64,000 bases of DNA, from IMG/VR virus record IMGVR_UViG_3300024299_000001, positions 32,001 to 96,000 of that record; one strand, 5' to 3'. The position numbers and the translations under genes are program-made. Source of the stretch: a virus. Positions 9,694 through 19,787 of this stretch are shown here, piece by piece. The first letter of the stretch is position 1. Every line of letters starts with the position of its first letter. A model generated the notes under the pieces. It was not told the origin of the DNA and made no database searches. It saw nothing but the letters and a program-made list of their open reading frames with translations.

Positions 9694-9963
9694 TTACCTC
9701 AGTACCATCAAAACTAGATTTGGTGTACCAGCAGACGCTTTAGCGTAAAATATAGTCTCACCTTTAGCTTGTGCTATATCTATATTAAAAGTTTGATTTG
9801 CTAAAGTTAAGCCATTTACTGTACCTGCTGTAGTATCAGATATATAAAATGCTGTTCCGTCGTCTACCCAAAAACTAATTGACCCGCAGCTTTGTGAAGC
9901 ACCTAGCGATATAGCAGTGTAGGTACTTGTGTTTAGCGCTGTTACGACCAGAGGTTGAATCAT
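9694..9963 (-). CDS. hypothetical small beta-rich protein coupled to giant ORF 2
   Basis: 89-aa ORF. Its ATG overlaps the stop of the 3275-aa gene (ATGA). Confidence 0.6.
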   Translation of the reverse strand: MIQPLVVTALNTSTYTAISLGASQSCGSISFWVDDGTAFYISDTTAGTVNGLTLANQTFNIDIAQAKGETIFYAKASAGTPNLVLMVLR

Positions 9964-18900: not shown

Positions 18901-19787
18901 CCGATATTGCCACCTGCGAGTTCCATAAGACCAGAAAGAACGCCAAAACCTAGTGAAGACATAGGAGCGTCTACGCCGTGCTCAGTCAAAAGCTCTCCGT
19001 AATTAAGACCTGCTTCAAGCTGAGATACTGTACCAACCATACCAGCTTTAGTAAGCTTCGCAACAGTTTTACGACCGCTAGCCTTCATATAGCCTTTAAG
19101 TAAGGCTTTTTCGAGTTGTTTCTCAGTAGCCTCTCGTGCAGTTTCTTTTATGACCTTATTTTTGATTTGGTGTGCAACTGCTGCCTTAGCTTTTTCTCTG
19201 ACCATTTTTCTCAAGCCATGTTTTACTACAGAGTATCCGACACCAGCAGATAGAGTTGTACCGATAATTGTTTCAGCTATAATAGGAACTTGGGATGCAA
19301 TTAAACCTTGAAACCAATCTACTCCTGTTCCTATACCTTTTACTTCATCAAGACTCAGAGTAGGATACTGACTTGCTTCGTCTTCGTACTGCGCGTACTT
19401 ATCCATACTAAAATCTTGAACAGCACTACCAGTGTCTTTAACAATGTCTATACCAAGTTTTTCTCCTGCGTACTTTGCTAAAGAACCAAGCACACCACCA
19501 AAGCCAGCCACACCTTGTTTAGTCGTAGCTATACCTTGTTTTAGACCGCGCTCTACATCTCCTAAGCGCAGCTTATTTGCTTCAGCTTGACGCTGTCTTA
19601 AAAGCTGGTGCTGCCAGTCTTCTTCATTAATACCAGACATAGTACGCGCGATTTGACCAAAGGGAACGCCTTGCTCAACAAGTGGTCGAATATCTACACC
19701 TTGATTTACTGCTAGACCTATAGCGATCTCTTGATCTGACATACCTTCTTGTAAGGCCGTCATATAATTTTCAGGAGTAAAGGGCAT
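9960..19787 (-). CDS. giant polyvalent-type virion/ejection protein (3275 aa): vRNAP-like N-terminal module, acidic and Lys-rich linkers, HExxH metallopeptidase-like, H-Y-E ART-like and EIQSD-type domains, hydrophobic C-terminal region
   Basis: Uninterrupted 9.8-kb ORF. 'ILHEGGHLL' (H1081); 'VYHGSP..YGWGFYGA..LYKLEMP'; 'IHEIQSDTHQD'; TM-like segments near residues 2780-3100. Confidence 0.8.
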   Translation of the reverse strand: MPFTPENYMTALQEGMSDQEIAIGLAVNQGVDIRPLVEQGVPFGQIARTMSGINEEDWQHQLLRQRQAEANKLRLGDVERGLKQGIATTKQGVAGFGGVLGSLAKYAGEKLGIDIVKDTGSAVQDFSMDKYAQYEDEASQYPTLSLDEVKGIGTGVDWFQGLIASQVPIIAETIIGTTLSAGVGYSVVKHGLRKMVREKAKAAVAHQIKNKVIKETAREATEKQLEKALLKGYMKASGRKTVAKLTKAGMVGTVSQLEAGLNYGELLTEHGVDAPMSSLGFGVLSGLMELAGGNIGLVDDFVGAIAKGMPGSYLKRAAKKLLTNIPSEMLQEAGQEVSSILNIVANTDEKFLTPENIKRIVESGVSGGAIGGAGAFVAATKSGIKKDLSVPDSIQDEVQQEPTTTQFAENAEEETIEETEEEETEETTDAEEVITEEDLSDMLESDLLPARSTKPYTTKKKAEGALKIRKLDPEKKFKVQQVKGGFVIREDTGEAEAAPKKTPKPKKLSDAEVIKLANVTEEDWKGYSAAQKNELRGEANMKSIKVETKGLKKETEEVKDKDSILPVPDTIKWGKMSLAQKLTFAKKHSSFTAYVNKKTNDTGLPKDKKEVQVMQAEFASTVYSAQLKKQNTKTKVGPYVQSNETEKEFTPFNAAEASEQKPLSKFQRLALGQIQESLLDENDYKPYPVIMDGKKIVGNFKWLNQKAIDAMEKEERPKTGVTAQTFKVLEKKGFIKRAEFDDGRVRWVPIDWKPKFKEKTITKDKKGQVKSKEKTKVEKPKTKKKSTKLPKPKNKDTKVISKEQSELDKINAKIAGQQYVLKHAKEGGAHKDVITDTKKIIHDLKVKRLHATMNLKKSQSEAKKEESSPITDKKEMSAAIDRFFGGTPSVKAINKRIAELKGMLTEYKKKDPEFAKQIEDKIRELESQSEAKKKVEKSEPIDSQKSTKKKKTSATTKKAKKSSKPAKKGSKPKKKVIKRTKAEQIKIRGVESQVVQDMQDMGIDDPLSKVEAVDYQEDLPDGVKKEFNLEEYDSTQELDFDDPKYSKGEKNRVAGVYWKGKLYLVLENLVRAGGAKGVILHEGGHLLLASDKQFKAMYNSFIASAAKRIKTDKVLLDIHNWVKEQYPSKPEVWEEETLMHYIQNEANTKLPFYKEMVFKLKAWLKRKLGMTENLSGYEMGLIVGNILRNKLGHTTLTSSAPLASRVYHGSPVTWQKESRFKHGRPRLDKMSTGSGVQTYGWGFYGAQMKATGLDYYKYFQFPAYNITGVTVNGKKIKFNPTAYNTKILFGQFVDANTAEDIALAYVGFAFNGTTHIHDTQEIYEDALWYLDIELEALRRDQASFENARLLPLYDQAGHLINAWKLKQAKINFTRSTNKDASLYKLEMPSPAISQLFHWDRTLGQQKPMARAKMHKLINSVQRKNSVPYKNKLHMRRINNNTLGSYIYRAVSKALGSDKAASLEFKKFGIPGLRFIDGWTRYKRYERKTFNYVIWDQKILNQTVVKKRNDIPLASKIIKFPAKSAYDKTSVNDRIAITPVEVADRVYYAMRPEVFKIWDAATGIKAEDTDVQARKKIWNAKQALTAEIGIFKFREYTKLKAELEQRYDFLTSGMIAFAKVYDDAFGGYKAKPQGGMTTPGNITVLEKAKDRKNADILPLKPPTKPKASKLAPKFSSRLEDDFIQAKGPGKATPENWLNTFKSWTNKSMPIHVKEEFFFSNLREWMQKQKGKVTKQQVMDHLAKYGLKARMDETVLGGRDITLFDQLHEEGINPEDYIAERASGFSGPAVNRVNELLTKPINETEYPDINGDFNKGESYTFATLIVAVDDKYIVFRDIIRDKLDNLGVYPEVRDHLLINVLNDTSLDSNSLRDSLAPISSDLMSKQSKDFLLADEDLVEDWRIIRDAVQDQGYLTEVQDALFSDAYRNAPVEADYVTLPTATGLKDYQEIIIQIPAIKDTELSKKGKHFRLENEVVHLRVSSIGDGLYIHEIQSDTHQDAKKYGYTDKKTYDKNTLKLRQLTEPGNAKVKHYVNYIVNKMHDTIPITKKNLDDKDVKRNFKIHVEGRFFGPFGPYSPAIYVDAEDLAINIIRGLSRDVRKSISVQDVESIIRDSKVMEKLIEPAFLAKKSLRAQPDLPFKDNSTQLALKRAVMEAVALGHTKLIWAKTPYHVAAIEGWPSNFRQDADGKWIYDSTEGIQIVDGIVKKYTEYLPQTITKLFKPYGGGKLTTTKIKDYAKAGKEFNSFEFNQELIDTVSADKVPLAAKVRTKAEQAKLDGEILGDNKAEAEKLFRDVMKDQETSKVPLRAKIAKLFNNVIDESDKLDESDGFTRKAHEQNIGIMGLLFNSPEYYLRRGAQAKKVMSHALREDNLKYTIEKFVLGNWTNLIKNLKKTSGYKKAYKIANDYLLQTDATGRGYSVKTKSTVTKTENAKVVKTTWLVMNPSNKVVGRAKTEEEATRKMISFEQQMLKKRKFNQASLDMVKEARLLTDRGFTLLTEELRRQVASAKENGLKAPTAQYTDDKGKTRQLAISQLITRIGDLRGTYFPRERQSKAYVLKAEHSNGKLVTKTYSGYLPQNVLSSPWVNKTRQLINTRMPVGVEARRLKALGYDVSIKVTPTPTDVIFDVPGLITSMDSLLKNAEENVKKDADTKVLQSIHNQMAQNIADVYKIKGRLTSRKQRSKRYYAGFETDMNKAFTSYAQRLAAGEARRTTTRNMLLAFTGRETSFKDWQKTNKKGTYTDYLTEVKKKAIDPTTQKGLYKATRLYMQFFLKPDTGFDRAVGYFKALAVVMYLGGRVSSAAVNLTNMVLAVPATITGYTGLNLAQSGKHVANSVTQYTKYRAGLSKKLGIHSLVGSGTLSAEDKAIFDYITSQGWDEANFNYEAARVIQGIGSRVFNEILKHAMVMFGATEKVNRATTIFAAYKALRQSDKEMYKRINTTLNSSKDPKLIEKAHKELLQHAKEISSQAHGTYGKAAKPWVIQKIRLLDLPFTFMKFQHNYILNMLDLGLNKKQIIAPLYMLMAPALLAGVPATMLTTLIKAMWPGHEDPEERFYQFIEDLTGSDTIARTGLIGATTGIDMTGSLQMNSPFPKKVIEIGGAPLAIWSDFAKAYEHFTFGETEKGLEDLAPRALGNIIKGKREFTEGLTTGSYAPVYHGTTPLKSTPYEVILRLFSFSPSRLSAIRDRQWSETQERREYTADRSDILRRYNRFYTLPLYKQDPEILMDLADKIRAYNNAVYTSKPKLLIPYITGKWLNRNLKQTFKPNKYEKQRSTL

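Follow-up and report, generated by a model that had tools for sequence, protein, structure and literature searches.

The window analysed here is a stretch of 64,000 nucleotides (positions 32,001 to 96,000 of the IMG/VR virus record IMGVR_UViG_3300024299_000001) from an uncultured marine N4-like virus of ~97 kb. Beside the gene of the N4-type virion RNA polymerase (vRNAP), it carries a second very large open reading frame (ORF), whose 3275-residue product, hereafter the giant, is the subject of this analysis. We consider it probable, with real room for other explanations, that the giant is a phage-type polyvalent protein that is packaged in the capsid and ejected, composed of an ejection-protein-like C-terminal scaffold and an accreted N-terminal array of effectors. 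We favour this explanation because of the late N4-like operon in which the gene lies, the shuffling of its modules, its zincin site, the homology and predicted fold of its C-terminus, the positions of its homologues, the precedent of Bcep22-like podophages and the avoidance of cysteine. The gene and its start signal are:

9960..19787, minus strand: giant ORF, 3275 aa, 368.9 kDa, pI 9.45, no cysteine, ATG start
19791..19797, minus strand: Shine-Dalgarno sequence GAGAGGA, 4 nt upstream of the giant's ATG

The translation of 9960-19787 on the minus strand is free of internal stop codons, which bears out the first-pass annotation, a description made from the DNA letters alone, in its claim of a second, uninterrupted giant ORF. 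The stop codon of the gene upstream lies at 19798-19800, leaving an intergenic gap of 10 bp, and the gene downstream overlaps the giant's stop codon. Metagenome contigs from several samples, 12-13 in all, encode the identical 3275-aa product, and one of them, 97,263 bp long, has the same neighbour genes; we therefore conclude that the giant is a real, conserved gene and no assembly artefact. Relatives at 33-60% identity retain long intact ORFs (1970-4601 aa), and at least two other marine contigs keep the synteny around the giant: L001, and L004 with the 4601-aa protein P0006. In contig L014 (6553-12877) a homologue is split into adjoining ORFs of 1094 and 958 aa, and in L015 (7910-13822) the public gene call gives 1273 aa for what is a 1970-aa ORF. 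Protein lengths in the databases are unreliable for this family. Apparent stand-alone C-terminal modules of 958 and 1273 aa were rejected, since the former directly follows the 1094-aa ORF and the latter is the under-called 1970-aa ORF.

The genes that place the giant in a late block are:

27375..38186, minus strand: N4-type vRNAP, 3603 aa, 400.5 kDa, no cysteine (phrog_2206, E=0)
44579..46378, minus strand: major capsid protein (MCP), 599 aa (phrog_1357)
48059..50230: portal (phrog_1216)
54044..55639: large terminase, TerL (phrog_38)

The giant lies 7.6 kb downstream of vRNAP in the same late operon, on the same strand as TerL, portal, MCP and vRNAP and with operonic gene spacing. The block also encodes N4-type virion proteins and N4-type tail genes, and the early identification of the first giant as the vRNAP of an N4-like late block was correct. 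The portal is at best 50-53% identical to those of N4-like isolates (480 N4-like records compared), and the structural block had no megablast match among 50,697 phage records; by these sequence comparisons we therefore assign the phage to a new Schitoviridae-like lineage. When vRNAP was used as query in the contig survey, only one near-identical, truncated contig was returned. The possibility that the giant is a diverged paralogue of vRNAP was rejected, as BLAST and profile searches revealed no similarity between the two proteins; unlike vRNAP, the giant has no polymerase domain.

The whole giant was searched against Pfam, PHROGs, NCBIfam and the sequences of the PDB. Pfam (E<=1), PHROGs and the PDB sequence search returned noise only. 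The giant nevertheless consists of at least five separately conserved modules, each of which also occurs independently in other proteins. Its parts are:

residues 1-400 (18588..19787, minus strand): N-terminal Gly-rich amphipathic module, 12% Gly, with three moderately hydrophobic Gly-zipper-like stretches
residues 401-1000 (16788..18587, minus strand): acidic tract, then Lys-rich low-complexity linkers; up to residue 604 within the conserved N-terminal block
residues ~1040-1195 (16203..16670, minus strand): zincin-type metallopeptidase domain, HEGGH at 1081-1085
residues 1196-1515 (15243..16202, minus strand): domain X, unannotated, YHGSP...GxGxQ..GWGxY ... KAS...GIxG..YxD..R...NYV
residues 1660-2265 (12993..14810, minus strand): EIQSD domain ("EIQSDWHQ"), unannotated, three conserved blocks with two lineage-specific inserts between them
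residues 2320-3275 (9960..12830, minus strand): conserved C-terminal module of ~950 aa, mostly alpha-helical, related to 'tail-700/PLxRFG'
residues 3014-3039 (10671..10748, minus strand): single strongly hydrophobic, transmembrane-like segment, Kyte-Doolittle 1.83

The C-terminal module is the only part common to all relatives, at 31-46% identity and with dozens of invariant residues. Relatives sharing these ~950 aa are L002, L003, P0006, P0008, P0009, P0014, P0020, P0036 and P0056. N-terminal to the shared module some of them differ completely, carrying LPD1 and ART-PolyVal (L002), GGDEF (P0014) or HATPase (P0006), and others reuse zincin and EIQSD in another order or copy number. The homologues on non-N4 contigs lie within structural and lysis modules. 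The only NCBIfam match of the giant was NF032893, 'tail-700, PLxRFG domain-containing protein', which aligned to residues 2657-3238 over profile positions 87-645 of 681 (E 2e-19). A tblastn search of the 50,697 phage records with the module matched only the C-termini of PLxRFG/DarB-like giants (Lastavirus, Parlo, Erwinia Stean and Pavtok, Ochrobactrum POI1126; E 1e-9 to 3e-3) and one Vibrio phage, and a hidden Markov model (HMM) of the C-terminal family detected residues 3270-3732 of Parlo gp81 (E 3.8e-19). No Schitoviridae record among the 50,697 matched the module, which agrees with the earlier statement that canonical N4-like phages carry a single giant.

The AlphaFold2 (AF2) model of the C-terminal module was largely helical (pLDDT 74, pTM 0.67). 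Searching BFVD with this model by Foldseek revealed C-terminal fragments of phage giants (E 4.5e-20 to 1e-10, TM-score up to 0.62), from proteins that bear the names 'large polyvalent protein-associated domain-containing', 'AdoMet MTase', 'helicase' and 'DNA methylase'. Roseobacter phage CRP-4 was matched more weakly, through its 'internal virion protein D' (E 8e-8, TM-score 0.43), and further matches were to 'internal protein D' of Bordetella phage BB8 (E 6e-4) and a 1416-aa protein of Vibrio phage ICP2 (E 1.6e-8). CRP-4 gp39 sits in the T7-gp16 slot of that phage's T7-like structural module. No sequence link was found between the C-terminal module and T7 gp15. The models thus suggest that the module is a relative of ejectosome proteins, a supported hypothesis and not more, because no link to gp16 or gp39 emerged at the sequence level. 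The several transmembrane-like helices first ascribed to this region came down to one strong segment, listed above, and one moderately hydrophobic segment at residues 2780-2815.

Upstream of this module, the conserved N-terminal block spans residues 81-604 and has counterparts solely at the N-termini of other giants (P0075, P0018, P0034). The first-pass annotation had described the composition of the N-terminal part of the protein correctly: the first 400 residues are rich in glycine with hydrophobic stretches, residues 401-500 contain 29 D+E, and the Lys-rich stretches at 701-800 and 901-1000 reach 32-33 K+R per 100 residues. The HExxH segment that it had noted likewise proved to be a conserved site. 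H1081, E1082, H1085 and E1136 are invariant among 31 homologues, and E1136 is likely, judging from this conservation, to be the third zinc ligand. The pattern HExxH...E is the signature of the metallopeptidase (MPTase) of polyvalent proteins, which has been called their processing hub (PMC5512222). The zincin domain had no Pfam match, and its profile gave sub-threshold matches only in the PDB (IrrE, E 0.2-0.33; M32 carboxypeptidase, E 1.1).

Domain X also occurs in P0001-P0005, P0027, P0030 and P0094, where it adjoins, yet is distinct from, a Pfam ART-PolyVal domain. Its H1208 and Y1244 are invariant and align with the N-terminal 'YHGT...GxGxY' of ART-PolyVal at a weak hhalign probability (36%, P 3.7e-4). 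The reading of this segment as an H-Y-E ART is a tentative one: Pfam gave no match of domain X to ART-PolyVal (PF18760), an ART HMM built from 38 sequences failed to detect it (iE 0.41, residues 1205-1227), and no invariant catalytic Glu was found in its C-terminal half. It is possible that domain X is a divergent ART with an insert of ~130 aa.

The EIQSD domain is marked by GKATPENW at 1688 and IHEIQSD at 1987, with E1714, H1966, R1977, E1989, Q1991, S1992 and D1993 invariant. An exhaustive phmmer search of 1.84 billion representatives (clusters at 50% identity) found it at E<=1e-3 in 202 cluster representatives, a lower bound, nearly all of them 2-6 kaa (thousand residues) long; the pattern that had been recognised as typical of polyvalent proteins thus belongs to a widespread domain. 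EIQSD carriers also hold ART-PolyVal, LPD38, LPD22, LPD3, InPase, GGDEF and Acb1-like domains, and since most of the 202 are proteins of this size and content, the EIQSD domain is, on the evidence of sequence, a common, unnamed polyvalent-protein domain. Screened singly against Pfam at E<=1, no member had a model touching the domain, and the EIQSD profile had no significant match in the PDB. Its AF2 model (pLDDT 65 overall, 85-97 in the core) likewise had no significant match in the PDB (best E 0.7), although GNAT/FemX-like fragments of ~49 columns recurred at probability 0.1-0.2. The closest larger relative, P0006 (L004, 649-14454, 4601 aa), carries three tandem EIQSD domains and a GHKL-type HATPase_c, which points to rapid domain amplification in this phage lineage.

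Taken over all proteins with homologues of domain X or the EIQSD domain, the accompanying domains are ART-PolyVal, LPD22, LPD38, LPD3, LPD1, InPase, GGDEF, GNAT and Acb1, with ART-PolyVal in at least 30 of the 166 proteins collected. Other phage proteins of 2-6 kaa, which carry Pfam polyvalent-protein domains (ART-PolyVal, LPD1/3/22/38, InPase, GGDEF, Acb1), reuse the zincin domain, domain X and the EIQSD domain in varying order and number, and the proposal of a polyvalent-protein-like array is borne out to this extent. From their conserved residues, the EIQSD domain and domain X are probably catalytic.

The question of packaging is addressed by position and composition. Directly upstream of the giant, in the same operon, lie:

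19798..23950, minus strand: three cysteine-free ORFs of 534, 488 and 360 aa (19798-21402, 21389-22855 and 22868-23950), no family matches

These ORFs are candidates for companion virion or ejection proteins; the 534-aa protein had no relatives in IMG/VR. Cysteine is absent from all three, from the giant (3275 aa), from vRNAP (3603 aa) and from the ORFs 38195-40042, 42862-43896 and 46402-47643 (minus strand), and several N4-type virion proteins have zero or one. Its content is 0.4-2.2% in terminase, ligase, helicase and the ORFs 8074-8625 and 24628-25398. At a cysteine frequency of 0.5%, the probability of finding none in 3275 aa is ~7e-8. CRP-4 gp39 (1455 aa; L017, 1755-6122) is also free of cysteine. 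In N4 itself the vRNAP (gp50) travels inside the capsid and is ejected into the host cell (Rothman-Denes laboratory). Given that both giants entirely lack cysteine, the second giant shares a marked, non-random property with the one protein of this genome that, going by N4, is packaged and ejected; in this phage lineage, absence of cysteine might be used to predict virion or ejected proteins at little cost. Mass spectrometry has detected giant DarB-like proteins, whose genes close the morphogenesis module, in the virions of Bcep22-like podophages (PMC9144972). From these lines of evidence together, we infer that the giant is packaged in the capsid and ejected.

A polyvalent protein of this kind would be made late, from the operon of virion proteins and vRNAP, and the conserved ~950-aa C-terminal module would bring it into the capsid. 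At infection it would be ejected through the tail before or together with the DNA, whereupon the C-terminal module with its one transmembrane-like helix, and perhaps also the Gly-zipper N-terminal module, would engage the host envelope. The zincin domain could cleave the polyprotein at the long acidic and Lys-rich linkers, and the freed domain X and EIQSD domain might find their targets, in the host or its defences, during the first minutes of infection, alongside vRNAP.

Several observations weigh against packaging and ejection of an effector array. The support for packaging is indirect throughout, comprising operon position, positions of homologues, fold matches, the Bcep22-like analogy and cysteine avoidance. 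JC1 gp69, a giant whose presence in the virion is proven by mass spectrometry, was not matched by the C-terminal HMM; direct transfer of the JC1/Bcep22 mass-spectrometry evidence was therefore rejected, and this evidence transfers only by analogy through Parlo. A second cargo of 369 kDa beside the 400-kDa vRNAP raises a question of capsid capacity. The NF032893 score of 69.5 bits falls short of the curated cut-off (100 bits), and nowhere does the giant contain the literal motif PLxRFG (PL.RFG), whereas Parlo gp81 has PLSRFG at 3081. Neither the profile nor the AF2 model of the C-terminal module matched the PDB, and hmmsearch and hhalign gave no sequence signal to T7 gp16 or CRP-4 gp39 (P 0.1-0.6); the link to internal virion protein D is one between predicted models of long helical proteins at TM-scores of 0.3-0.43. 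Finally, no putative effector domain of the giant matches any Pfam, PHROG or PDB family, and for this reason the label 'effector' is guilt by association.

Some of these points would suit a purely structural ejection or internal-core protein, that is, a hypertrophied gp16-like channel or core component whose N-terminal domains serve assembly, peptidoglycan or membrane penetration, or DNA translocation. The C-terminal module alone is universally conserved and matches internal-virion-protein-D models, no domain of the giant matches a known enzyme family, and the Gly-zipper module together with the transmembrane-like helix suggests membrane work. However, the N-terminal parts are freely swapped, those of relatives include bona fide enzymes (ART-PolyVal, InPase, GGDEF, GNAT, HATPase, Acb1-like), and in the giant itself the intact HExxH...E site and the invariant polar clusters of the EIQSD domain point to catalysis. 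We regard a purely structural role as unlikely.

It is more doubtful still that the giant is a late cytoplasmic multi-enzyme that never enters the virion and serves, for example, superinfection exclusion, anti-defence or lysis timing. Its packaging is deduced, the gene is among the most distal of the late operon, beyond the canonical N4 structural set, and isolated Schitoviridae do without it, all of which such a role would accommodate. The total absence of cysteine is nevertheless that of vRNAP and virion proteins and not of the same phage's cytoplasmic enzymes, the C-terminal homologues lie within structural modules of unrelated podophages, and the fold matches are to internal virion proteins. 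Late synthesis would moreover suit takeover functions only in a protein that passes into the next cell.

In its size, its long and helical C-terminal region and its hydrophobic segment, the giant bears a loose resemblance to tape-measure proteins. That it is a homologue of tape-measure or tail-fibre proteins without enzymatic role is nonetheless highly improbable, since no such family was matched in Pfam, PHROGs or NCBIfam, the phage is short-tailed and N4-like and encodes N4-type tail proteins of its own, the C-termini of polyvalent giants are the best fold matches, and the AF2 models show no tandem repeats or beta-helix features. Of the first description of the C-terminus as tape-measure- or ejection-like, the ejection part agrees with the fold matches and the tape-measure part falls. 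That the ORF is a chimeric assembly, or a decaying gene fusion never expressed as one protein, is scarcely credible: the split homologue in L014 would fit, but the identical ORF on contigs from different samples, the intact ORFs of its 33-60% identical relatives, the Shine-Dalgarno site and the tight packing in the operon all speak against it.

If the giant is indeed a packaged and ejected polyvalent protein, N4-like phages, for which one injected giant enzyme is the textbook picture, gain a second, unrelated giant cargo. This would raise the issues of capsid capacity, of the order of ejection and of a division of labour between transcription (vRNAP) and manipulation of host or defence. The data point to the ~950-aa 'tail-700' module as a constant scaffold of phage polyvalent proteins and thereby as a testable route into the next cell, and make the EIQSD domain and domain X candidates for new anti-defence or takeover activities. 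More tentatively, and as a scenario that may well fail in one part or another, we suggest that a ~97-kb marine N4-like lineage added a second ejected giant in which a hypertrophied gp16-type C-terminus carries at least two uncharacterised enzyme families (EIQSDWHQ and X) that are freed by a built-in zincin. In that case the PLxRFG/tail-700 module would be a general adaptor for capsid loading and ejection that makes an ejectosome protein a modular vehicle for effector delivery, and one virion would deliver ~770 kDa of two unrelated giant proteins.

Inspection of the neighbouring genes revealed further features. The boundary of the late operon is marked by:

7979..8009: hairpin with a perfect 14-bp stem and a following T-run, at the junction of the minus-strand late operon with the plus-strand replication genes

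This hairpin probably terminates transcription in both directions. The late operon ends with an ORF (8074-8625, minus strand; 183 aa, 4 Cys) that has a weak match to phrog_1128 (enoyl-CoA hydratase / ClpP-like; E 3.5e-5). The ORF directly downstream of vRNAP matches only positions 558-848, the middle, of the 1183-position phrog_2295, a PHROG of unknown function (E 2e-52), and its neighbour has a weak match to phrog_5906; by these matches the two ORFs (25636-26541 and 26498-27352, minus strand) look like pieces of a much longer protein of other phages. Residues 16-599 of the MCP span positions 25-348 of the 356-position phrog_1357 profile, and since 599 aa cover this profile end to end, the MCP contains a large insertion when compared with typical N4-like capsid proteins; this insertion may be connected with the size of the genome, larger at 97 kb, and with the additional protein cargo. 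The replication module at window positions 1-7308 (plus strand) encodes a PolA fragment, ligase, SNF2 helicase and dCMP deaminase. In L004 the synteny is as in the window, the giant converging on dCMP deaminase, SNF2 helicase, ligase and PolA. The window's replication module is 40-58% identical to that of ~60-kb contigs (L014, L004), whereas the visible structural genes of these contigs have no similarity to the N4-like set, and on this comparison the giant may be transferred along with the replication genes between viruses of different virion type.

Polyvalent proteins are a pervasive class for which the concept of delivery by the virion is established (Iyer, Burroughs, Anand, de Souza & Aravind 2017, J Bacteriol; PMC5512222), and DarB-like giants are present in virions (PMC9144972), so that the initial suggestion of an undescribed delivery system was overstated. 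The giant answers to the description of the class, with several (2-15) distinct domains in one polypeptide and, as a phage gene, a place next to virion and late genes. It resembles the proteins of that study in being a long polypeptide of unrelated conserved domains with a zincin HExxH...E hub, virion-gene neighbours and domain shuffling. Homologues of its domains also co-occur with ART-PolyVal, LPD1/3/22/38 and InPase; InPase and LPD38 are specific to phage-type polyvalent proteins (PMC5512222). It differs in that its own domains reach no Pfam polyvalent model (MPTase-PolyVal, ART-PolyVal, LPDs), and its EIQSD domain, domain X and ~950-aa C-terminal module are absent from the Pfam domains derived from that study.

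The PLxRFG/DarB-like giants compared were those of temperate podophages, namely Lastavirus ZX1, LASTA, SJM3 and SopranoGao, Serratia phage Parlo (gp81), Erwinia Stean and Pavtok, and Ochrobactrum POI1126. They share with our giant a homologous C-terminal ~500-700 aa and resemble it in being giants (3.7-4.5 kaa) encoded by the last gene of the morphogenesis block. They carry methyltransferase, SNF2/helicase, transglycosylase and acyltransferase domains (PMC6606913), which were not detected in our giant; identity is only ~21%, the PLxRFG motif is missing, and the phage studied here is of lytic type, N4-like and also equipped with a vRNAP gene. Bcep22 gp75 (Lessievirus), JC1 gp69 and P1 DarB are giant, multi-domain and virion-associated, and P1 DarB acts on incoming DNA (PMC9144972). 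They provide a functional precedent for a capsid-delivered giant, with JC1 gp69 undetected by the giant's C-terminal profile. The core of P1 DarB, an N6-adenine methyltransferase with an SF2 helicase, was not found in the giant with Pfam, PHROGs and NCBIfam, and for want of this core there is no reason to call the giant an antirestriction methylase.

Like the T7 gp16-type internal virion proteins D, including their positional equivalents in Zobellviridae (CRP-4 gp39), the giant is large, helical and free of cysteine, with N-terminal enzymatic domain(s) and a long C-terminal region, but it is 2.5 times longer and without a lytic transglycosylase (no SLT or lysozyme domain in Pfam or NCBIfam). 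Because the TM-scores between models are 0.3-0.43, common ancestry of its C-terminal module with these proteins is plausible and no more. With N4 gp50 it shares huge size and absence of cysteine, and it lies in the same late operon as this phage's own vRNAP, without sequence similarity. N4 vRNAP has been treated as the polyvalent protein of N4-like phages, with no second one described (PMC5512222). No second giant in Schitoviridae was found in the phage database or in the literature, the 100-kb AltAD45 phages having only a split vRNAP. Together, the polyvalent class and the giant DarB-like virion proteins of Lessievirus, Lastavirus and Parlovirus are known already, whereas the second giant beside vRNAP in an N4-like genome, the delimitation of two widespread uncharacterised domains and, tentatively and from predicted structures, the link of the 'tail-700' module with ejectosome proteins are new.

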